From Acidobacteriota bacterium (GTDB lineage Bacteria > Acidobacteriota > UBA6911 > RPQK01 > JADFOI01), in NCBI GenBank assembly GCA_963663035.1, contig OY760074.1:64001-128000 (forward strand): 64,000 bases of DNA, given 5' to 3'. The notes under the pieces were generated by a model. The model saw only the letters and a list, made by a program, of their open reading frames with translations. It was not told where the DNA came from and did not search any database. Of this stretch, positions 2,240 to 47,756 are shown one piece after another; the stretch's first letter is position 1; the number at the start of each line of letters is the position of its first letter. A program made the position numbers and the translations under genes.

Positions 2240-2446
2240 CGATAAAAAACATACATATGCTAATATACCAATCGATAAGTCATTCTGGCACGCTGTCGGC
2301 GACGAGGTTCTACTACATCCAGATGACAGAGAAAATCCAAGCTGGAACCAAGACGCACTTTGAACTGCCCGGTGGCCCCGGCCGCACACGGGTGCAACGT
2401 CACCGCGACGACCCTCGCTTCCACGACCTGCTTCCATGAGAAGGCC

Positions 2447-2760
2447 CTTTCTTGTCAAGACCGACTTGGCGGTCAAAAGTCCGGGACCGGGTGATTAAGC
2501 CAGCTGATGGGAGTTCGCTTAATCGATCCAGTGATGCTGATTTTGTTTGCCTTGCTTCCATCCGCACTCTTTTTCAGCCCTTGATTTGGACTGGGTGCAT
2601 GTAAGGGTTCGTCAAACTGGGCGCTGCAATCTGCGGCTCGTTCTCTTCCGAAGGAAGGAACAGCAGGTCGTTCGCAGTCACCCGAACTGGGCATTTGGAT
2701 CATTGAGGTTAACTCCATGGGCGGGTCACGTTCACCGGAATCCCTTCTGGGTTCAATCTC
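2447..2760 (-). ncRNA. Putative bridge/seek RNA region of IS1111 copy 1 (boundaries approximate)
   Basis: Non-coding 3' end containing cgacctgctg - hairpin - ccgcag, matching both halves of the insertion target. Confidence 0.75.
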
Positions 2761-3849
2761 TTAGGCAGCCCCTTCCAGGTACTCTTGATTGTTGTACAGC
2801 GGTTCATAGGTCTCTCCTGTGACCCACAGATGGTGCAGCAGGACCGAGAGTTTACGAGCCACCGCCACCACGGCTCGCTTCTTGGCGCTTTTTCCTCCTC
2901 TGGAAGCAATCCTCTCCCCATAGCGTCGCAAGTCACAATCCGAGCCAAAAGGTCCCAGGATGTACTGGGAACTACCGACCAGTAGTTTGCGAACGAATCG
3001 GTCGCCGGCTTTGGTAATCCTCAACTGAGGATCCCGATTCCCGGATTGGTCTTGTCTGGGAGTGAGCCCCAGATACGCTCCCACCTGGCGACTTCTTCCA
3101 AACCGATGGGCATCCTCGAGGGTCAAAACAAAGGCCAGAGCTGTGATCGGTCCTACTCCTCGAACTTGCTGAAGGTTCTCGGTGTCCGGATACTTCTGCT
3201 GGCACAGTTGCTGAATCTGCCGATCGTATTGGCGGATCTGTGCGGTGAGCTGTTGGATCATCTCCAGCAGGGGCTCCAAAGCCATCTTCAGGCAACCCGG
3301 AATGTGGAGTTTGACCCGATGGGGAAAAGCCTCTGTGGAACAACTGGGCAGACGCTCCCCGAAGGCTTTCACAGATCCTCGGATAGGATTGACCAGCCGG
3401 GTTCGGGCTCTCACCAGCTCATCTCTAGCTTTAACCACCGCCAGGTCCGCTTGAGCGGCTTCGCCCCGATGCTGAATCGGATACAACAGCTCGGGATCCA
3501 CTCTTCCTAAACGTCCCAGAAGCTCTCCATCCTTGCGGTCCGATTTCTTTCGGTTCTGGCTGATGAGTCGAACCTGTCGGGGATTGGCCACGATTTCTTC
3601 GTGTCCTTGCTCCTTGGCTATCGCTTGCACCCACCGAGAGTGGGTTCCCGTTTCCAACACCACCCGCATTTTTGGCTGAGACTTGAAGAACCTTTCCATG
3701 GCTCGTCGTTGAGTCTTCACCCTACCTTCTTCCACTTTCTGTCCTGACTTGTCGATGATGCAGTAGTAGGAAAATTTGTCTCCCAGGTCCAAACCCATCG
3801 TCAGTTCCGGAATCTGTGTGATCTCTTTGATAGAATCTTTCATGGCCAA
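2761..3849 (-). CDS. IS110-family DEDD recombinase/transposase
   Basis: GLDLG, LETG, KSDRKDG, GVGPITA, YLGLTPRQDQSG motifs. Confidence 0.95.
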   Translation of the reverse strand: MAMKDSIKEITQIPELTMGLDLGDKFSYYCIIDKSGQKVEEGRVKTQRRAMERFFKSQPKMRVVLETGTHSRWVQAIAKEQGHEEIVANPRQVRLISQNRKKSDRKDGELLGRLGRVDPELLYPIQHRGEAAQADLAVVKARDELVRARTRLVNPIRGSVKAFGERLPSCSTEAFPHRVKLHIPGCLKMALEPLLEMIQQLTAQIRQYDRQIQQLCQQKYPDTENLQQVRGVGPITALAFVLTLEDAHRFGRSRQVGAYLGLTPRQDQSGNRDPQLRITKAGDRFVRKLLVGSSQYILGPFGSDCDLRRYGERIASRGGKSAKKRAVVAVARKLSVLLHHLWVTGETYEPLYNNQEYLEGAA

Positions 3850-4045
3850 GCTCCTTTGCTAAAGAGTTAATATTTTGCAGCCCAAGCTTTGGGACTGCGT
3901 TCCTCTTACTGCAGCTCATTTTAGAGACTGCCTCTGAGGAGTTTGGCCTTCTCATCCTTATCTGCTGCGGATGAACCTGGCGCCGTAGATGAAGCTGATC
4001 TTTCAGGTCGCGTTTCAACTGATAGAATAGTGCCTGAGGTGTTTA

Positions 4046-4327: not shown

Positions 4328-4338
4328 GGCCTCTTTTT

Positions 4339-4391
4339 GCGACGACCCTCGCTTCACTGACCTGCTGCTGCGGATGAATTTGGAGCCTTGA
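4339..4391 (+). repeat. Repeat A (DDPRFTDLLLRMNLEP*), intact and unoccupied by IS
   Basis: gcgacgaccctcgcttcactgacctgctgctgcggatgaatttggagccttga. Confidence 0.9.
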
Positions 4392-5642: not shown

Positions 5643-5696
5643 CGCGACGACCCTCGCTTCCAGGACCTGATGCGGCGCATGAACTTAGAGCCGTGA
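5643..5696 (+). repeat. Repeat A (RDDPRFQDLMRRMNLEP*)
   Basis: Direct sequence match to the other copies. Confidence 0.9.
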
Positions 5697-5829
5697 TTGA
5701 TTCAACTGTAACCATTTTGTAACCGCGACAACCCAAAACCACCCCATTCCACACCACTCCAGCCAAGATAGACAACACGTAACTACTTGGTAAATCTAGT
5801 GGTTTCAGTTGGTTAGGATTTACCCGTTG

Positions 5830-5887
5830 AGGACTTAAAATCCTGTGAGGGTTTCCCTCGTGAGGGTTCGAGTCCCTCCCCGGGCAC
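5830..5887 (+). repeat. 3' half of tRNA-Leu(TAA), att-like duplication, copy 1
   Basis: Anticodon loop ggacTTAAAAtcc, long variable arm, T-arm gagggTTCGAGTccctc, acceptor strand cccgggca; no 5' half or D-arm. Confidence 0.88.
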
Positions 5888-5949
5888 GCTTCTGACGCGG
5901 GTTTCAGCCAAATTGAGTCTCCCCGACTCACCCTCCAAACCCCCAAATT

Positions 5950-6013
5950 GTGCCTGAAGTGTGCCCGCGCCAAACTCACTCCAACTCACTCCAGCCAAAA
6001 TAGAGGGGAATTT
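5950..6013 (+). repeat. Repeat E: gtgcctgaagtgtgcccg + (ccaactcact)n arm-like repeat
   Basis: Recurs at 9922-9985, 10104-10123, 29279-29317, 46676-46697, 49741-49770 and 63628-63646. Confidence 0.8.
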
Positions 6014-9752: not shown

Positions 9753-10043
9753 AGGTCTCCTCCGATGCGCAAGGTCGCTCCAGTAGTACTAGGAGCCCTA
9801 GAGCAGTCGAGGAGACATTTCACGAAAGTATCTTCCTTGCCTCTCCTTGGCCTCGAAGACTTTCATGAGTATTCTGATAGGTATTCCATGAAGGAACAAA
9901 TGCGGAAGGCTTCGGGGGGTTGTACCTGAAGTGTGCCCGCGAGGATCCAACTCCAACTCACTCCAGCTCACTCCAACCAAGATAGCGATTTAAGAGCGAC
10001 GGGATTTCTCCCGATTTGAAAGGTACTTAGAAATCCCACTTCC

Positions 10044-10101
10044 AGGACTTAAAATCCTGTGAGGGTTTCCCTCGTGAGGGTTCGAGTCCCTCCCCGGGCA
10101 C
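10044..10101 (+). repeat. 3' half of tRNA-Leu(TAA), copy 2
   Basis: Identical to 5830-5887. Confidence 0.88.
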
Positions 10102-10155
10102 GCTTACTCCAGCTCACTCCAACTTTCTCAAACCAATTTAGAGGGCCAATTTTGA

Positions 10156-10185
10156 TTGCTTTCAGGACACCTCAAGACTTAGCAA
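10156..10185 (+). promoter_or_regulatory. Repeat D promoter copy (TTGCTT-18-TAGCAA)
   Basis: ttgctttcaggacacctcaagacttagca, as at 30767 and 46728. Confidence 0.6.
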
Positions 10186-12787: not shown

Positions 12788-14426
12788 CCGCAATTATTCA
12801 TAAGTTTGGGGTGAGTGTCGATTTTCTGCGGAAGTTCAGGGCTGAGAGTGTGTTCAGGTGCGATTACAAGGCGTCCAAGCTTGTTGAGCCGAATAGAGAT
12901 GAAGCGAGAGCCCCTTCCGGAAACAGCTCGGCCCGCAGGGGGCTGTATATCTGTGTTGGCGCAGGGAGTCAGGGGACCGTCAGGTGGGACACAGACGGTG
13001 CATCAGTAATGCGAAGAGCTTTTGTTCGGGATAAGACGATGCCAGGTGCACCCAGATGCGACGAGAAGTTTCCCGAACCCGGGCACCGATTTTGAACAGG
13101 CGGCGGCGGAGCGTCTCAATCTCCAGGTTGTGCCAGGGAGTCCCGCACAGGTAATCCCGCAGGCGCAGGATTAAGACATAGGCCAGGGCGTGGATGAAGA
13201 GTCGGAACTGGTTGGCCAGGAAACGGTGGCAGCTCAAGCGATCCATGGCCAGATCTTTTTTGAAAGCTTTCACGAAGTTCTCGCACTGGCCCCGTCCGAT
13301 GTAGTGGTCATACAGCTGCCCGGCCGTGAGATCCTGGCGGTTGGTGACCACAAAGCGACGGTTGAACCCGCGCTCGCTCACTTCCACCTTGGCCACCATG
13401 CGCCGCTCCCGGTCCCAACTGTCGGCCTGATAGACGAGCTCGGTGAACTGGCGTTGCTTTTCTCCTGAGTCGTCATAGTCTGCTTGCACCTGCTCAACCA
13501 AGGGCTCGACGGTGGCCGCCAGCCGGGAGTTGCGGGCAAAGCCCACCACATACTGCAGTTTTTCCTCCTCACAGAACTCGTACAGTGCCGGCGTCGCAAA
13601 GCCACTGTCGGCTCGCACTTCGATCGGAACATCGGATCCCAGAACCTGGCGCATCCGGGCCACCACCCGTTTGAGAACCGCCACCGCGTGGGCGGCCGCC
13701 CCCTGGTTGCCGGGCCGCAGTAGCGCACATACCAGATCGCCCGTCTCGCCATCGAATAGCAGCAGCGGATGATACATGTGCTCGCGATAATAGCCGTGGT
13801 AAAAGCTGAACTCCTGCTGCCCATGCGTGACGTCATCCGTGCTGTCGATGTCCAGGATGATCTTCTCGGGCCGGCTCTTCTTGCGGTGCTTCAAGTAGGT
13901 CTCCAGCAGCCACTGTCCCAGGCGAGTGAGATCCTTCGAGTCCACCGAGTTCTCCAGTCGCGACAGCGTGGGTTGAGAAGCCAGATCCGGATCGCTTTCC
14001 GGCAGCCGATCACACACGGTCTTGAAGATGGGATCCGAGCGCAAGCTGTCGGCATCGTTGCAGTCCTCATAGCCGGCCACGATCTGAAAGCTGCGCTGGG
14101 TGAGCAGTTCGCGAATCTGGTGGCGGACGTAGCGGCTATCTCGAGCGTCCTTCAGGCAGGAGGCAAAGCCAGCCGTCAGTCCGTGCTGTTGATCCAGGGC
14201 GTACAGACACAGCAGCCCGGCATCGGAGGAGAGCCGGCCTCCATCGAATCGAGCCACCACTTTTCTGTCAGGGTGAGATGGCAAGTTGATCTGGCAGACT
14301 GATGCATCGCTGGGCCGTACCTTTTTGGTTTGGAGTTGTTTCATAACCCCTTTTATATCAAAGAGGTACGGCATCTTTTTGTGCCCTCGATCAGACCCCT
14401 TCTTCAGAATTTATGAATAATCCGGG
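12788..14426 (-). mobile_element. IS1380-family element, copy 1
   Basis: IRs ccgcaattattcataagtt / cccggattattcataaatt; CTAG on both sides. Confidence 0.93.
12980..14374 (-). CDS. IS1380-family transposase
   Basis: FDGGRLSSDAG, LASQPTLSRLEN, LDIDST, VRADSGF, RGQCEN. Confidence 0.95.
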   Translation of the reverse strand: MPYLFDIKGVMKQLQTKKVRPSDASVCQINLPSHPDRKVVARFDGGRLSSDAGLLCLYALDQQHGLTAGFASCLKDARDSRYVRHQIRELLTQRSFQIVAGYEDCNDADSLRSDPIFKTVCDRLPESDPDLASQPTLSRLENSVDSKDLTRLGQWLLETYLKHRKKSRPEKIILDIDSTDDVTHGQQEFSFYHGYYREHMYHPLLLFDGETGDLVCALLRPGNQGAAAHAVAVLKRVVARMRQVLGSDVPIEVRADSGFATPALYEFCEEEKLQYVVGFARNSRLAATVEPLVEQVQADYDDSGEKQRQFTELVYQADSWDRERRMVAKVEVSERGFNRRFVVTNRQDLTAGQLYDHYIGRGQCENFVKAFKKDLAMDRLSCHRFLANQFRLFIHALAYVLILRLRDYLCGTPWHNLEIETLRRRLFKIGARVRETSRRIWVHLASSYPEQKLFALLMHRLCPT

Positions 14427-16774: not shown

Positions 16775-16817
16775 TCGCTTCACTGACCTGCTGCGGCGGA
16801 TGAATCTAGAGCCGTAG
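16775..16817 (+). repeat. Repeat A (RFTDLLRRMNLEP*)
   Basis: tcgcttcactgacctgctgcggcggatgaatctagagccgtag. Confidence 0.88.
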
Positions 16818-23782: not shown

Positions 23783-23858
23783 GAAACGAGGGCCCACATC
23801 CCAACTATACACACTAAAGCCGCACAAGCTTCCCTCAACCTGCTTCTATGAGAAGGCC

Positions 23859-24172
23859 CTTTCTTGTCAAGACCGACTTGGCGGTCAAAAGTCCGGGACC
23901 GGGTGATTAAGCCAGCTGATGGGAGTTCGCTTAATCGATCCAGTGATGCTGATTTTGTTTGCCTTGCTTCCATCCGCACTCTTTTTCAGCCCTTGATTTG
24001 GACTGGGTGCATGTAAGGGTTCGTCAAACTGGGCGCTGCAATCTGCGGCTCGTTCTCTTCCGAAGGAAGGAACAGCAGGTCGTTCGCAGTCACCCGAACT
24101 GGGCATTTGGATCATTGAGGTTAACTCCATGGGCGGGTCACGTTCACCGGAATCCCTTCTGGGTTCAATCTC
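23859..24172 (-). ncRNA. Putative bridge/seek RNA region, copy 2
   Basis: Same sequence as copy 1. Confidence 0.75.
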
Positions 24173-25261
24173 TTAGGCAGCCCCTTCCAGGTACTCTTGA
24201 TTGTTGTACAGCGGTTCATAGGTCTCTCCTGTGACCCACAGATGGTGCAGCAGGACCGAGAGTTTACGAGCCACCGCCACCACGGCTCGCTTCTTGGCGC
24301 TTTTTCCTCCTCTGGAAGCAATCCTCTCCCCATAGCGTCGCAAGTCACAATCCGAGCCAAAAGGTCCCAGGATGTACTGGGAACTACCGACCAGTAGTTT
24401 GCGAACGAATCGGTCGCCGGCTTTGGTAATCCTCAACTGAGGATCCCGATTCCCGGATTGGTCTTGTCTGGGAGTGAGCCCCAGATACGCTCCCACCTGG
24501 CGACTTCTTCCAAACCGATGGGCATCCTCGAGGGTCAAAACAAAGGCCAGAGCTGTGATCGGTCCTACTCCTCGAACTTGCTGAAGGTTCTCGGTGTCCG
24601 GATACTTCTGCTGGCACAGTTGCTGAATCTGCCGATCGTATTGGCGGATCTGTGCGGTGAGCTGTTGGATCATCTCCAGCAGGGGCTCCAAAGCCATCTT
24701 CAGGCAACCCGGAATGTGGAGTTTGACCCGATGGGGAAAAGCCTCTGTGGAACAACTGGGCAGACGCTCCCCGAAGGCTTTCACAGATCCTCGGATAGGA
24801 TTGACCAGCCGGGTTCGGGCTCTCACCAGCTCATCTCTAGCTTTAACCACCGCCAGGTCCGCTTGAGCGGCTTCGCCCCGATGCTGAATCGGATACAACA
24901 GCTCGGGATCCACTCTTCCTAAACGTCCCAGAAGCTCTCCATCCTTGCGGTCCGATTTCTTTCGGTTCTGGCTGATGAGTCGAACCTGTCGGGGATTGGC
25001 CACGATTTCTTCGTGTCCTTGCTCCTTGGCTATCGCTTGCACCCACCGAGAGTGGGTTCCCGTTTCCAACACCACCCGCATTTTTGGCTGAGACTTGAAG
25101 AACCTTTCCATGGCTCGTCGTTGAGTCTTCACCCTACCTTCTTCCACTTTCTGTCCTGACTTGTCGATGATGCAGTAGTAGGAAAATTTGTCTCCCAGGT
25201 CCAAACCCATCGTCAGTTCCGGAATCTGTGTGATCTCTTTGATAGAATCTTTCATGGCCAA
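24173..25261 (-). CDS. IS110-family transposase
   Basis: Protein identical to 2761-3849. Confidence 0.95.
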   Translation of the reverse strand: MAMKDSIKEITQIPELTMGLDLGDKFSYYCIIDKSGQKVEEGRVKTQRRAMERFFKSQPKMRVVLETGTHSRWVQAIAKEQGHEEIVANPRQVRLISQNRKKSDRKDGELLGRLGRVDPELLYPIQHRGEAAQADLAVVKARDELVRARTRLVNPIRGSVKAFGERLPSCSTEAFPHRVKLHIPGCLKMALEPLLEMIQQLTAQIRQYDRQIQQLCQQKYPDTENLQQVRGVGPITALAFVLTLEDAHRFGRSRQVGAYLGLTPRQDQSGNRDPQLRITKAGDRFVRKLLVGSSQYILGPFGSDCDLRRYGERIASRGGKSAKKRAVVAVARKLSVLLHHLWVTGETYEPLYNNQEYLEGAA

Positions 25262-25483
25262 GCTCCTTTGCTAAAGAGTTAATATTTTGCAGCCCAAGCT
25301 TTGGGACTGCGTTCCTCTTACTGCAGCTCATTTTAGAGACTGCCTCTGAGGAGTTTGGCCTTCTCATCCTTATCTGCTGCGGAGGTGGTTTAGGTATTGG
25401 TGTGTTCTAAGCGTAATTCCATTCTTAACCTGACAGAGGTGTCCGATAGCATTTCTCACCGAATCGTGCAGGGAGATTCTGAG

Positions 25484-30831: not shown

Positions 30832-33800
30832 GTGCTCGGCAAGACCATCAGCCATTACAAAGTCACTGAGAAAATAGGCCAAGGGGGTATGGGTGAGGTC
30901 TACCGGGCCACCGACACCAAGCTGAACCGCGACGTGGCGCTGAAGATCCTGCCGGAGCAGTTTGCCTCCGATTCCCAGAGGATGGGCCGATTCCAGCGGG
31001 AAGCAGAGGTCCTGGCCTCCCTGGATCATCCCAACATTGGGCAGATTTACGGCATCGAAGACGCAGGCCAGACCAAGGCCCTGGTGCTTCAGCTCATCGA
31101 AGGTCCCACCCTGGCGGAAAGAATTGCCCAGGGACCGATCCCGGTGGAAGAGGCCCTCAAGATCGCCCTGCAGATGGCGGAGGGTCTGGAAGCTGCCCAC
31201 GAGAAGGGTGTAATCCACAGAGACCTCAAGCCTGCCAACATCAAGATTACGCCGGAGGGCCAGGTCAAGATCCTGGACTTTGGTTTGGCGAAGGCTCTGG
31301 AAGGGGAGACTCCAGCCTCAAGCCTCTCCCAATCCCCGACGCTGACCAATGCGGCAACACAGGCGGGGGTCATCCTGGGAACGGCTGCCTATATGTCCCC
31401 GGAGCAAGCCCGAGGCGAGAACGCCGACCAGAGAGCAGATGTATGGGCTTTCGGCGTTGTGCTGTTTGAAATGCTCACTGGGCGCAGAAGCTTTGAAGGG
31501 CGCACAGTTTCGGATGTTCTAGCTGCCGTCCTTGCAAAAGAGCCGCAATGGAACAGCCTCCCGGACAACCTCCATCCGAGACTCCGACAACTCCTCGAAC
31601 GTTGTTTGGCGAAAGAGTTAAGAGACCGATACACAGGCGTTGGGGATGCACGAGTGGATATTCAGACTGTCCTGGCCGATCCGGGTGGTGTGCTTGTGCA
31701 GCCCGTTGCTGAGGTCATTCAGGCAGCATCGCGATCGAAGCTACCGTGGGTCGTGGCCGTACTCGGAATCATGATCGCTGGAGTGGCTGGCTGGGTTCTT
31801 CGAGTACCGGACCCTGGGCTAGTCAGCCGTTTTAATTTCATCCTGCCCGAGGGCCAGGGCTTTACGAGCCTCGGCGAACATGTTGTTGCGGTTTCTCCCG
31901 ATGGGTCAGCATTTTTGTACGTCGCAGATCGACAAATATACATAAGACGGATGGACTCGCTCGGATCAACTCCGATACCGGGAACAGCAGTCAATGCTAG
32001 CCGCAATTATTCATAAGTTTGGGGTGAGTGTCGATTTTCTGCGGAAGTTCAGGGCTGAGAGTGTGTTCAGGTGCGATTACAAGGCGTCCAAGCTTGTTGA
32101 GCCGAATAGAGATGAAGCGAGAGCCCCTTCCGGAAACAGCTCGGCCCGCAGGGGGCTGTATATCTGTGTTGGCGCAGGGAGTCAGGGGACCGTCAGGTGG
32201 GACACAGACGGTGCATCAGTAATGCGAAGAGCTTTTGTTCGGGATAAGACGATGCCAGGTGCACCCAGATGCGACGAGAAGTTTCCCGAACCCGGGCACC
32301 GATTTTGAACAGGCGGCGGCGGAGCGTCTCAATCTCCAGGTTGTGCCAGGGAGTCCCGCACAGGTAATCCCGCAGGCGCAGGATTAAGACATAGGCCAGG
32401 GCGTGGATGAAGAGTCGGAACTGGTTGGCCAGGAAACGGTGGCAGCTCAAGCGATCCATGGCCAGATCTTTTTTGAAAGCTTTCACGAAGTTCTCGCACT
32501 GGCCCCGTCCGATGTAGTGGTCATACAGCTGCCCGGCCGTGAGATCCTGGCGGTTGGTGACCACAAAGCGACGGTTGAACCCGCGCTCGCTCACTTCCAC
32601 CTTGGCCACCATGCGCCGCTCCCGGTCCCAACTGTCGGCCTGATAGACGAGCTCGGTGAACTGGCGTTGCTTTTCTCCTGAGTCGTCATAGTCTGCTTGC
32701 ACCTGCTCAACCAAGGGCTCGACGGTGGCCGCCAGCCGGGAGTTGCGGGCAAAGCCCACCACATACTGCAGTTTTTCCTCCTCACAGAACTCGTACAGTG
32801 CCGGCGTCGCAAAGCCACTGTCGGCTCGCACTTCGATCGGAACATCGGATCCCAGAACCTGGCGCATCCGGGCCACCACCCGTTTGAGAACCGCCACCGC
32901 GTGGGCGGCCGCCCCCTGGTTGCCGGGCCGCAGTAGCGCACATACCAGATCGCCCGTCTCGCCATCGAATAGCAGCAGCGGATGATACATGTGCTCGCGA
33001 TAATAGCCGTGGTAAAAGCTGAACTCCTGCTGCCCATGCGTGACGTCATCCGTGCTGTCGATGTCCAGGATGATCTTCTCGGGCCGGCTCTTCTTGCGGT
33101 GCTTCAAGTAGGTCTCCAGCAGCCACTGTCCCAGGCGAGTGAGATCCTTCGAGTCCACCGAGTTCTCCAGTCGCGACAGCGTGGGTTGAGAAGCCAGATC
33201 CGGATCGCTTTCCGGCAGCCGATCACACACGGTCTTGAAGATGGGATCCGAGCGCAAGCTGTCGGCATCGTTGCAGTCCTCATAGCCGGCCACGATCTGA
33301 AAGCTGCGCTGGGTGAGCAGTTCGCGAATCTGGTGGCGGACGTAGCGGCTATCTCGAGCGTCCTTCAGGCAGGAGGCAAAGCCAGCCGTCAGTCCGTGCT
33401 GTTGATCCAGGGCGTACAGACACAGCAGCCCGGCATCGGAGGAGAGCCGGCCTCCATCGAATCGAGCCACCACTTTTCTGTCAGGGTGAGATGGCAAGTT
33501 GATCTGGCAGACTGATGCATCGCTGGGCCGTACCTTTTTGGTTTGGAGTTGTTTCATAACCCCTTTTATATCAAAGAGGTACGGCATCTTTTTGTGCCCT
33601 CGATCAGACCCCTTCTTCAGAATTTATGAATAATCCGGGCTAGAGCGCCGTTTTTCTCGTTCGATGGACAGTGGGTTGGATTCAACAACCGTACGGATGG
33701 AGACCTCAAGAAGATATCTGTGAGTGGCGGTGCACCTGTGTCGTTAACTGAAATGGAGAGGCCCTGGGGTGTAAGTTGGGGTGCAGACGACATGATCGTC

Positions 33801-35785: not shown

Positions 35786-37424
35786 CCGCAATTATTCATA
35801 AGTTTGGGGTGAGTGTCGATTTTCTGCGGAAGTTCAGGGCTGAGAGTGTGTTCAGGTGCGATTACAAGGCGTCCAAGCTTGTTGAGCCGAATAGAGATGA
35901 AGCGAGAGCCCCTTCCGGAAACAGCTCGGCCCGCAGGGGGCTGTATATCTGTGTTGGCGCAGGGAGTCAGGGGACCGTCAGGTGGGACACAGACGGTGCA
36001 TCAGTAATGCGAAGAGCTTTTGTTCGGGATAAGACGATGCCAGGTGCACCCAGATGCGACGAGAAGTTTCCCGAACCCGGGCACCGATTTTGAACAGGCG
36101 GCGGCGGAGCGTCTCAATCTCCAGGTTGTGCCAGGGAGTCCCGCACAGGTAATCCCGCAGGCGCAGGATTAAGACATAGGCCAGGGCGTGGATGAAGAGT
36201 CGGAACTGGTTGGCCAGGAAACGGTGGCAGCTCAAGCGATCCATGGCCAGATCTTTTTTGAAAGCTTTCACGAAGTTCTCGCACTGGCCCCGTCCGATGT
36301 AGTGGTCATACAGCTGCCCGGCCGTGAGATCCTGGCGGTTGGTGACCACAAAGCGACGGTTGAACCCGCGCTCGCTCACTTCCACCTTGGCCACCATGCG
36401 CCGCTCCCGGTCCCAACTGTCGGCCTGATAGACGAGCTCGGTGAACTGGCGTTGCTTTTCTCCTGAGTCGTCATAGTCTGCTTGCACCTGCTCAACCAAG
36501 GGCTCGACGGTGGCCGCCAGCCGGGAGTTGCGGGCAAAGCCCACCACATACTGCAGTTTTTCCTCCTCACAGAACTCGTACAGTGCCGGCGTCGCAAAGC
36601 CACTGTCGGCTCGCACTTCGATCGGAACATCGGATCCCAGAACCTGGCGCATCCGGGCCACCACCCGTTTGAGAACCGCCACCGCGTGGGCGGCCGCCCC
36701 CTGGTTGCCGGGCCGCAGTAGCGCACATACCAGATCGCCCGTCTCGCCATCGAATAGCAGCAGCGGATGATACATGTGCTCGCGATAATAGCCGTGGTAA
36801 AAGCTGAACTCCTGCTGCCCATGCGTGACGTCATCCGTGCTGTCGATGTCCAGGATGATCTTCTCGGGCCGGCTCTTCTTGCGGTGCTTCAAGTAGGTCT
36901 CCAGCAGCCACTGTCCCAGGCGAGTGAGATCCTTCGAGTCCACCGAGTTCTCCAGTCGCGACAGCGTGGGTTGAGAAGCCAGATCCGGATCGCTTTCCGG
37001 CAGCCGATCACACACGGTCTTGAAGATGGGATCCGAGCGCAAGCTGTCGGCATCGTTGCAGTCCTCATAGCCGGCCACGATCTGAAAGCTGCGCTGGGTG
37101 AGCAGTTCGCGAATCTGGTGGCGGACGTAGCGGCTATCTCGAGCGTCCTTCAGGCAGGAGGCAAAGCCAGCCGTCAGTCCGTGCTGTTGATCCAGGGCGT
37201 ACAGACACAGCAGCCCGGCATCGGAGGAGAGCCGGCCTCCATCGAATCGAGCCACCACTTTTCTGTCAGGGTGAGATGGCAAGTTGATCTGGCAGACTGA
37301 TGCATCGCTGGGCCGTACCTTTTTGGTTTGGAGTTGTTTCATAACCCCTTTTATATCAAAGAGGTACGGCATCTTTTTGTGCCCTCGATCAGACCCCTTC
37401 TTCAGAATTTATGAATAATCCGGG
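35786..37424 (-). mobile_element. IS1380 copy 3 (transposase 35978-37372)
   Basis: Identical transposase and ends; CTAG TSD; intergenic. Confidence 0.93.
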
Positions 37425-43943: not shown

Positions 43944-44110
43944 ATATTCCTTGCTTTACAAAAAGGCTTTGATGAACCTGAAGGGGAGATCACACGGGCT
44001 TCATGTTGCGAAATTTGCCAGCTCAGGAAGCCCTCCTCTGAAGTGGTAATTTCACTATAACATGGGAGCCTCCTTCTCTGTGCGGGAGTGCTCAGGAGCC
44101 ATGACTCGCC

Positions 44111-44177
44111 TCTGCGACGACCCCATGAGGGTGATTTTCATTGCTTTCAGGACACCTCAAGACCTAGCATTGGAGGT
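44111..44177 (+). promoter_or_regulatory. Repeat A start fused to repeat D promoter
   Basis: gcgacgaccc then TTGCTT(44141)-18-TAGCAT(44165). Confidence 0.65.
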
Positions 44178-46470: not shown

Positions 46471-46605
46471 GTCGACCTCCTTAGTCATGAACAGTTCCTT
46501 GGCCAATGGTCAGGACCTTATTGAATCGGGCCAGAGGGGTATTACATCGTTGTTCAATTCTTAGCAGTGATCGGACCCTATGTCAATACCCCCACCCCGG
46601 CCGTG

Positions 46606-46772
46606 CCCCTCCGTGACGACCCTCGCTCCCAGGACTTAAAATCCTGTGAAGGTTCGAGTCCCTCCCCGGGCACACTTACTCCAGCTCACTCCAGCCAGCT
46701 CGAAGCAATTTAGACGGCCAAGTTTGCTTGCTTTCAGGACACCTCAAGACTTAGCATTGGATGCAACTGCAT
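46606..46772 (+). repeat. Composite spacer: repeat A + tRNA-Leu 3' fragment (46631-46673, variable arm deleted) + repeat E + promoter D
   Basis: ctccgtgacgaccctcgctcccAGGACttaaaatcctgtgaaggttcgagtccctccccgggcac..actccagctcactcc..TTGCTT-18-TAGCAT. Confidence 0.88.
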
Positions 46773-46880
46773 CACGAAAGAGGGAGCATTTGGGAAAATC
46801 CATGGGCGGGACAACTATCAGCCACCACAACTCCCTGGAAGGAGTATTGGCCAGGGGTGAATAAAGAGATCTGCAGAGCC

Positions 46881-47756
46881 ATGTCACGGCGGAGAAAACA
46901 TACGAGAATACTTTTCTCGGAGGCACTGTTGATACTCTTGTTGGGTGCCGTGGCATCATATGGGGCCACAGTAGCGTACTCACTCCAGTTGCCACCTGAC
47001 ATTCCAGTGCCGGACAGGCCGAGCCGGCTCTTAACGGATATAGAGGGGCGTCCACTCCCCCTAGAGAGCGATGAGGAGATCGTACGTTTCCTGCACACAG
47101 CTCGGGTTGTCTCTTCCGAAGAGATCGGAGAGGGTGTGAGCGGGGCGCGTAAGGTTTTGTTGGAGAAGGACGGTCTTCGTGTTCATTCCATCTTTCGGGA
47201 TGTGCGCGTCAACGAGTCCAGGAGATTGCCCTCGGGGACGTGTGCAGCCTATGAGTTGAGCCGATTGCTGGGACTCGACAATGTTCCTCCAGCCGTGGAA
47301 CGGGAGATCGAGGGTAAGAAAGGATCGTTGCAGCTGTGGATCGAGGGGGCAGTAACCGAGAAGGTCCGAAGAGATCAGGGCCTCTCCCTTTTGGATGAAG
47401 AACGCTTGAGTCAGCACTGGCAAGTGATGTTGGTCTTCGATAACTTGATCTTCAACGATGATCGCAATCGAGGGAATTATCTCTATGACCGCAACGGCAA
47501 ACTTTGGATGATCGATCATACGCGATCCTTTCGAACAGATGATGAGTTACCCTACCCAACAGGTATCCTTCACTCTGAACGCCAGTTGTGGGAGGGATTG
47601 CAAAAGCTTGAGTCGGCTGTCGTGAAAACACATCTCCAGCAATACTTGGATCCTGCCGCACTGGAATCACTGATCAGACGCAAGGAAAAACTGGTGGAAC
47701 ACATCCAGGAAATGATTGCTGAGCGCGGCGAGCAGGATGTGCTTTTTAGCTTCTGA
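46881..47756 (+). CDS. Secreted atypical kinase-fold protein (PI3/4-kinase-like)
   Basis: AAYELSRLLGLDNVPP, GSLQLW, DNLIFNDDRNRGN, WMIDH. Confidence 0.7.
   Translation: MSRRRKHTRILFSEALLILLLGAVASYGATVAYSLQLPPDIPVPDRPSRLLTDIEGRPLPLESDEEIVRFLHTARVVSSEEIGEGVSGARKVLLEKDGLRVHSIFRDVRVNESRRLPSGTCAAYELSRLLGLDNVPPAVEREIEGKKGSLQLWIEGAVTEKVRRDQGLSLLDEERLSQHWQVMLVFDNLIFNDDRNRGNYLYDRNGKLWMIDHTRSFRTDDELPYPTGILHSERQLWEGLQKLESAVVKTHLQQYLDPAALESLIRRKEKLVEHIQEMIAERGEQDVLFSF

Follow-up and report, generated by a model that had tools for sequence, protein, structure and literature searches.

In the 64,000-nt stretch of Acidobacteriota DNA analysed here (the window), the end of a Ser/Thr kinase gene is joined to the 3' part of a tRNA-Leu(UAA) gene at a CAGGAC that the two pieces share (Table 1). 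This site is a decaying genomic scar rather than a working recombination site, and it probably formed by deletion between repeats of 6-10 nt, leaving an inert product. The evidence shows an ordinary island scar, in decay and attached to the relic of a gene, rather than a protein-coding repeat at which tRNA-island integrases land secondarily.

The identity of both pieces and the point at which they meet can be observed directly. On the + strand, CCCCTCCGTGACGACCCTCGCTCC (46606-46629) runs into CAGGAC (46630-46635) and from there into TTAAAATCCTGTGAAGGTTCGAGTCCCTCCCCGGGCAC, which ends at 46673. A BLAST search of 46560-46780 against the genome aligned 46606-46635 with the end of a full-length kinase gene at 381396-381425 (28/30 identical, E 3.9e-5), and the 21-mer GACGACCCTCGCTTCCAGGAC of the kinase end (KE) matches 46615-46635 with one mismatch. 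At up to three mismatches this 21-mer has four matches in the window, against 0.01 expected from shuffles. The tRNA fragment corresponds to positions 28-86 of the tRNA-Leu(taa) gene at 3548899-3548984, minus a 15-nt gap in the variable arm and with substitutions added. The string AGGACTTAAAATCCTG occurs three times in the window (5830, 10044 and 46631; 0.04 expected), and a 23-mer of the T-arm and acceptor occurs eight times in the genome, with the three copies in the window ending at 5887, 10101 and 46673. The switch from kinase repeat to tRNA anticodon stem at AGGAC, which a preliminary description of this DNA had reported, is therefore real.

Table 1. Coordinates of the features in the window
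Feature	Position	Strand	Remarks
KE relic	46606..46635	+	30 nt, reads P-L-R-D-D-P-R-S-Q-D; no kinase body upstream; last 6 nt (CAGGAC) shared with the fragment
tRNA-Leu(UAA) 3' fragment, decayed	46630..46673	+	from the first anticodon-stem base to the acceptor end
Short form of the conserved post-tRNA flank (ACTCCA repeats)	46674..46715	+	90% identical to the flank 10102-10184
Conserved kinase leader (upstream) module TTGCTTTCAGGACACCTCAAGACTTAGCA, then decayed kinase start	46716..46834	+	ATG 46802, MGGTTISHHN..., then stop
Downstream gene MSRRRKHTRILF..., membrane-anchored, no Pfam family	46884..47756	+	orthologue in G005
attP-like block: M1' repeat region, P-a arm, tRNA-Leu fragment (5830-5887), long flank with hairpin, M1	5706..6010	+	
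attP-like block: M1, P-b arm (ends CACTTCC), tRNA-Leu fragment (10043-10101), short flank, leader module	9920..10184	+	
Complete orphan kinase end, RDDPRFQDLMRRMNLEP-stop	5643..5696	+	9 nt upstream of an attP-like block
IS110-family element, in an orphan kinase end between GACCTG-CT and CT-GCTGCGGATG	2433..3961	-	DEDD_Tnp_IS110 and Transposase_20

The fragment shows clear signs of decay. It alone among the eight tRNA-Leu copies of this genome has substitutions within its tRNA part, including a G-to-A change, which implies that the sequence is no longer maintained. The 15-nt deletion in its variable arm falls between two copies of GTGAGGGTT, a 9-nt direct repeat, and the flank behind it lacks about 76 nt that are found in the flank of the true tRNA gene. 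Further downstream, the leader and the decayed kinase start now precede an unrelated membrane protein gene, and a simple sigma-70 scan called no promoter in the leader module (46716-46834). Two other readings of the fragment were rejected. For a functional tRNA or other RNA gene at 46631-46673, ARAGORN gave 0 genes in the window and an Rfam gathering search matched the true tRNA alone; a group I intron or a split tRNA-Leu(UAA) does not fit a break at the 5' edge of the anticodon stem, rather than inside the anticodon, in eight copies with differing left flanks. The sister species G005 keeps the leader module, the kinase-start relic and the downstream gene, and has neither tRNA fragment nor KE at that place; its orthologue of the downstream gene lies on the same contig and strand as its tRNA-Leu gene, 50 kb off. 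Orthologues of this gene are carried by five genus members, but synteny stops at the leader module, and a precursor could be read at the orthologous locus in none of them.

Judging by their sequences, the displaced tRNA-Leu 3' fragments appear to be remnants of island attachment sites. The genome holds eight copies of the tRNA-Leu(UAA) 3' part (ARAGORN makes four tRNA-Leu(taa) calls over the whole genome), and only 3548899-3548984 is a complete gene: it alone reaches the Rfam threshold among the loci searched, and its 5' half is conserved in relatives. The copies are alike only over about -68 to +170 relative to the tRNA end; seven of the eight have a 100% identical tRNA part, with flanks at 85-97%, and the left limits fall into three classes, (C)AGGAC, CGCACAGGAC and GCAGACGCACAGGAC. 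A 340-nt block around 5830 is conserved in two genomes of the same family (G008 and G011), in unrelated surroundings. We also note that two complete attP-like blocks, each made of M1, a left arm, the tRNA-Leu core and a right arm, sit within the chromosome (Table 1). The M1 repeats may be an arm-type binding cluster or plain sequence from upstream of kinase genes.

Copies in relatives and metagenomes show the same picture on a larger scale. Across 14 relatives and the genome itself we read 30 loci, 8 of them full genes and 22 partial copies (4 from this genome, 18 from the relatives); tRNA identity ends within 5 nt of GGAC in 14 of the partial copies, at 7-9 nt in five and at 12 nt in three. 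A metagenome scan with the exact 50-nt tRNA part gave 43 loci (9 full genes, 34 partial copies), and 19 of these partial copies start at the anticodon stem. The sequences upstream are recurring arm families, P-a to P-f, that are common to several genera and recur in the metagenomes (9 P-b, 5 P-c and others). Around an identical core, at least six left-arm families combine freely with three right-arm types (metagenome loci L091-L133), a hallmark of site-specific exchange at this core. The comparison genomes are mostly fragmented MAGs, 65-99% complete, in which absence is weak evidence; one of them, G017, supports no claim made here. As to whether breakpoints pile up at AGGAC, the check proposed in the preliminary description, starts of tRNA fragments do cluster, behind arm families, and the breakpoints of KE relics are scattered. 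The pile-up arises because tRNA-fragment starts cluster at the anticodon stem whatever adjoins them upstream, and it is a property of the tRNA core, not of the kinase.

These fragments resemble the tDNA islands of the Islander collection (Islander/Williams; PMC4383910) in several features: a 3' tRNA fragment that is displaced but keeps the gene's orientation, with identity that begins at the anticodon stem, and more than one fragment per genome. The fragment here matches the 3' part of a tRNA gene on the same replicon, apart from the 15-nt gap and the substitutions, and its identity starts at the first anticodon-stem base, which puts the crossover at the anticodon loop (class A), the sublocation of the commonest attP class there, with 2083 of 3919 islands (PMC4383910). 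An example that still carries its integrase is found in the same order. In this 12.6-kb island (L056, G029:C4:392800-406400), a tRNA-Leu(taa) at 528-614 is followed 50 nt downstream by an integrase ORF on the opposite strand (664-1527), and a 67-nt direct repeat that begins ACAGGAC bounds the island (554-620 and 13124-13190, 91% identical, 12.57 kb apart). In the analysed genome a tyrosine recombinase/integrase gene (1255801-1256799) sits in the interval bounded by the copies at 1248 and 1260 kb. These two integrases share 24% identity over 230 residues, a level at which a shared lineage cannot be claimed. An integrase between tRNA gene and fragment, as in Islander islands (PMC4383910), is thus present in the G029 island and for the 1248-1261 kb pair but lacking at the locus studied here: PF00589 (tyrosine integrase) matches 0 of the 58 ORFs in the window, and none of its eight matches genome-wide falls within the window or within 3549-3595 kb. 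The fragments also do not seem to adjoin the tRNA gene, unlike those of Islander islands (PMC4383910). The fragment and the gene are on the same strand (+), about 156 kb apart if the contig is circular, with the housekeeping genes pyk, acs and purB between them. Furthermore, this copy is mutated, and a kinase-gene relic has taken the place of its left arm.

A second likeness is to the ssrA islands of Dehalococcoides (PMC3146451), many of which have accreted at one small-RNA gene and are bounded by direct repeats of its 3' end, in tandem stacks that are partly integrase-less and combine conserved integration modules with varying cargo. The target here is tRNA-Leu(UAA) instead, at least six left-arm and three right-arm types re-assort, and the stack is scattered, most likely by IS activity. 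Identical DDE_Tnp_1_4 insertion sequences were observed at many sites, among them 12980-14374, 32193-33587 and 35978-37372 of the window and 3549333-3550637 of the genome, with one of them 154 nt past the true tRNA-Leu gene and exactly behind a kinase leader module; rearrangement mediated by insertion sequences probably scattered the island stack. Together, these data mark tRNA-Leu(UAA) as an unusually busy and diverse integration hot spot in this uncultured Acidobacteriota family. It is not the only tRNA gene with such traces. At least eight other tRNA genes in the genome have displaced 3' fragments (their last 30 nt recur as extra exact copies, 2-4 copies per gene), including Ala(tgc) 2373011, Asp(gtc) 2845583, Arg(acg) 1212965, Pro(tgg) 763305, Asn(gtt) 1466770, Gly(ccc) 1677922 and Leu(caa) 3322104, so that island scars are common throughout the genome. 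The identity blocks of tRNA-Leu(CAA) measure 89, 61 and 44 nt. No kinase end is adjacent to the displaced Gly, Pro, Arg, Ala, Asp, Asn or Leu-CAA fragments.

The fusion of kinase end and tRNA fragment is rare, limited to one genus and decayed in both cases in which it occurs, yet it is not unique. In the analysed genome one of the eight tRNA-Leu copies carries it. The second case, at the same CAGGAC, lies in the sister species (G005:C7, about 542.6 kb), where GACCCCCTCCGCG-GACCCTCGCTTC is followed across the junction by CAGGACTTAAA-TCCTGTGAGGG...; it has a 3-nt gap in the KE, a 1-nt gap in the anticodon loop and a right arm of the long-flank type, and the gene that ends 27 nt upstream codes for a hydrolase, a kinase body being absent. 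A 29-nt fusion pattern at up to two mismatches found one site in one of 76 genomes of the order, the G005 copy being missed owing to its indels. A shorter junction pattern gave 11 hits in 137 genomes of the class against 11 in a reversed control, and only the sites in these two genomes are real. The fusion was absent among the 18 partial copies of relatives and the 34 of metagenomes, no KE motif lay within 250 nt of the 43 metagenome copies, and the exact junction pattern CCNCGNTNNCAGGACTTAAAATCCTG had 0 hits in metagenome_contigs and 0 in genome_contigs. A one-off event had been named beforehand as evidence against an attachment site in the kinase repeat; with two fusions in 137 genomes, the event is not strictly one-off.

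We favour a deletion between short direct repeats as the origin of the junction. Deletions of this kind, by replication slippage or microhomology-mediated joining, keep one copy of a 6-10-nt repeat at the junction and leave no reciprocal product. In the course of events that we propose, the tyrosine integrases of islands, crossing over at the anticodon loop, would have left the displaced fragment 46630-46673. The fragment has retained its right-hand arm (46674-46772), and the 30-nt KE relic stands in place of its normal left arm. The joining itself was probably a RecA-independent deletion (replication slippage or microhomology-mediated joining) between the CTTCCAGGAC of the KE and the same 10 nt where a P-b-type arm meets the tRNA core, with the 6-nt CAGGAC as the minimum homology. 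A hypothetical precursor would have resembled the arrangement at 5643-5887, with kinase end, arm and fragment in this order, and the product is functionless and decaying.

Slippage-type deletion between such repeats would yield exactly the observed junction and no reciprocal product. In line with this, 46606-46673 keeps one copy of the repeat, and copy 10043 reads CACTTCCAGGAC where the kinase end reads CGCTTCCAGGAC. Copies 46631 and 10043 have a short right flank in common (90% over 111 nt), both without the ~76 nt of the true flank. The layout at 5643-5887 is indeed a complete orphan kinase end, a 133-nt spacer and a tRNA fragment, as the preliminary description had it when offering a microhomology deletion of such an arrangement as its alternative reading, which is the one we now prefer. 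The same locus bears a second repeat-bounded loss, that of the 15 nt between 9-nt direct repeats, besides the ~76 nt missing from its flank. Finally, a reciprocal product was not found: the P-b arm is single-copy in the genome, and the junction of P-b with the remainder of the kinase end (P-b plus CAGGACCTG) gave 0 matches at 0-1 mismatch in the 15 family genomes. The sites that came closest to such a junction, in G005, turned out to be decayed tRNA fragments.

Several points weigh against a deletion. The CAGGAC fusion recurs in G005:C7 in another gene context and with a long right arm, and random deletions are not expected to recur; moreover, both relics start at the same KE position (CCCCTCCG, within 3 nt). 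The mechanism is one that we infer, unlike in established short-repeat deletions, and the precursor it postulates (kinase end, M1, a P-b arm with the tip CTTCC, core) turned up in no genome; the sole precursor-like layout observed, at 5643-5887, has a P-a arm that shares just AGGAC (5 nt). The relic reads CTCCCAGGAC and not CTTCCAGGAC, so that one later substitution has to be assumed. A replicative and an enzyme-mediated origin look alike in the sequence.

The kinase repeat itself offers little that resembles an attachment site. The KE is the nucleotide-conserved 3' end of a Ser/Thr kinase family, with the codons P-L-R-D-D-P-R-F-x-D-L-L-x-R-M-N-L-E-P-stop. The 18-mer CGCGACGACCCTCGCTTC is identical in 10 of 15 kinase ends compared (e.g. 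13271, 381402, 1066288, 1378408), and the proteins diverge just upstream; conservation at the nucleotide level suggests gene conversion or a constraint on the DNA. The preliminary description had suggested that the conserved FQDL codons may imitate the crossover region of the tRNA and serve as a secondary att site, and this idea failed most tests. CAGGAC is present in just 3 of the ~22 KE copies and relics of the genome (69643, 381402 and 46606-46635), the variable codon being more often ACT or CAC. Beyond CAGGA, the KE continues CCTGCTG CGGAT and the tRNA core CTTAAAA TCCTG, which agree at 2 of the 7 bases of the anticodon loop and at 0 of the 5 bases of the right stem. The limits of KE relics vary on both sides: on the left they are scattered (CCCCTC, CCTCCG, CGCGAC, GCGAC, TCGCTTC), and on the right they include the stop codon, the IS110 site, GACGACCC (~44109-44123, joined to a leader module) and CAGGAC. 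About 14 of the 22 KE copies genome-wide are orphan or truncated, with no long ORF attached and with scattered 5' and 3' limits. In the window, kinase ends without a kinase body are seen at 2404-2440/3962-4008, 4338-4391, 5643-5696, ~16775-16817, ~44109-44123 and 46606-46635, and three of these orphans lie within 3.3 kb, each behind a small unrelated ORF.

The copy at 10034-10049 had been taken as a second instance of the kinase string at the tRNA core. It does read CACTTCCAGGACTTAAAA, but it is not kinase-derived: its upstream 70 nt are the P-b arm, which has homologues in G003, G009 and G014 and at nine metagenome loci, and we rejected it as a second kinase fusion. The tips of these homologues are CTTAC in G009, CCCAC and CCGAC in G003, and CCCAC, CTCTC, CGGAC and CTTAC in the metagenomes, where CTTCC is met once again (L106).

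An integrase might nevertheless have acted on the kinase end. According to this explanation, which we consider unlikely, a tRNA-Leu island with a P-b-type attP (left core CTTCCAGGA) recombined with a KE that carried the same 9-10 nt. In this scenario strand exchange would have taken place at the left margin of the anticodon-loop overlap, producing kinase end...CAGGA joined to CTTAAAA...tRNA 3' part. The junction does lie exactly where an anticodon-centred top-strand exchange would fall, going by the Islander crossover classes (PMC4383910). The same junction is seen twice, in this genome and in G005, with flanks that differ on both sides. The left half of the core is alike as well: the CAGGA(C) match extends to CTTCCAGGAC when compared with the copy at 10034, so that the KE matches the left core of copy 10034-10043 over 10 nt, better than the tRNA gene does. 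The overlap and the right half are not alike (2/7 and 0/5 bases), and tyrosine recombinases normally require overlap homology. Reciprocal junctions were found neither in the genome nor in the 15 family genomes, neither locus has a kinase body upstream, and the window has no tyrosine integrase. The scarcity of CAGGAC among kinase ends (3/~22), the 0 hits of the exact pattern in metagenome_contigs and genome_contigs and the decay of both fusions point the same way.

A broader variant, in which the KE is a hot spot for two unrelated site-specific systems, an IS110-type element, whose insertion at one fixed KE position is shown (8 of 9 insertions in four species), and the tRNA-Leu island integrases with left core CTTCCAGGA, strikes us as doubtful. 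It would have the tRNA-Leu core joined to the KE twice, in two species, by half-site (left-core only) exchange. If it were true, kinase ends with the FQD codons would be natural pseudo-attB sites, and some of the orphan kinase ends would be their products.

It is also conceivable, if quite improbable, that the fusion arose only once and spread with a mobile island end, the KE relic acting as a short left arm, and that the two genomes obtained it by inheritance or horizontal transfer. Both copies have the same junction and the same relic 5' limit within 3 nt, and arms and cores of tRNA-Leu elements do move among the genomes of the family. However, the two copies share no derived substitutions and differ in upstream sequence and right arm; a KE "arm", in contrast to the six arm families that recur, is lacking in the 34 partial copies of the metagenomes and in the two large collections; and conservation upstream of the core spans 30 nt, against 60-190 nt for real arms. 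That the fragments are instead segmental duplicates, i.e. decayed copies of a tRNA-Leu/kinase intergenic region, with their adjacency to the kinase end going back to an old tandem kinase array, is very improbable: the post-tRNA flank does run into the module found upstream of many kinase genes, and 46606-46834 has the order kinase end, fragment, kinase-start relic, but tRNA parts that are 100% identical beside flanks of 85-97%, 5' limits that form three narrow classes at the anticodon stem or close to it, re-assorting left and right arms and the textbook integrase island of G029 speak against it.

The recombinase that is truly tied to the kinase-end repeat is an IS110-family element, not a tRNA-island integrase. 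The preliminary description was thus right to connect the kinase repeat with a recombinase, but the connection runs through this element, which inserts 6 nt downstream of AGGAC. The AGGAC junction lies 6 nt upstream of the insertion point, and the element is not its cause. The copy at 2433-3961 matches PF01548 (4.5e-17) and PF02371 (7.6e-19). The genome has four copies (23828-25383 of the window and 842130-843718 and 1204078-1206925 of the genome being the others); three of the four interrupt a KE at one and the same position, and the fourth lies in a site that resembles it, AACCTGCT...CTGCTGCGGAGG. Searching with the exact left junction, we found nine insertions in four species of the genus g1 (four in this genome, one each in G003 and G004, three in G005), eight of them in a KE. 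After each insertion the kinase C-terminus reads ...DLLP-stop.

Bridge-RNA recombinases of the IS110 family, IS621 among them, insert into repetitive elements in a sequence-specific manner, around a CT core (PMC11208160). The element at 2433-3961 resembles IS621/IS110 as described there (PMC11208160) in its DEDD and Transposase_20 domains, in showing no terminal inverted repeats, in the CT at both junctions and in its fixed target position (8/9 insertions). Its 330-nt non-coding end (2433-2762) carries two stretches complementary to the target, CAGCAGGTC and CATCCGCA (9 and 8 nt), as well as CTTCCAT, which matches the donor junction; Rfam gave no match in the window. Unlike IS621, as presented in that source (PMC11208160), it targets the coding 3' end of a paralogous kinase family and not an extragenic REP. 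This is a natural case of an IS110-family element homing to coding sequence, with each kinase that is hit shortened by a few residues.

Two further observations concern kinase relics elsewhere. A ~7 kb duplication (genome 1-8725 versus 3569221-3576506, 98-99% identity) contains a second tRNA-Ser(tga), along with a kinase-end relic that has lost 7 nt internally. The duplication may be real or an effect of MAG assembly. At 79-185 of the window, a kinase N-terminus is broken off after ~36 codons and is followed by an ORF of no assigned kind and by an IS256-type transposase gene on the - strand (891-2135).
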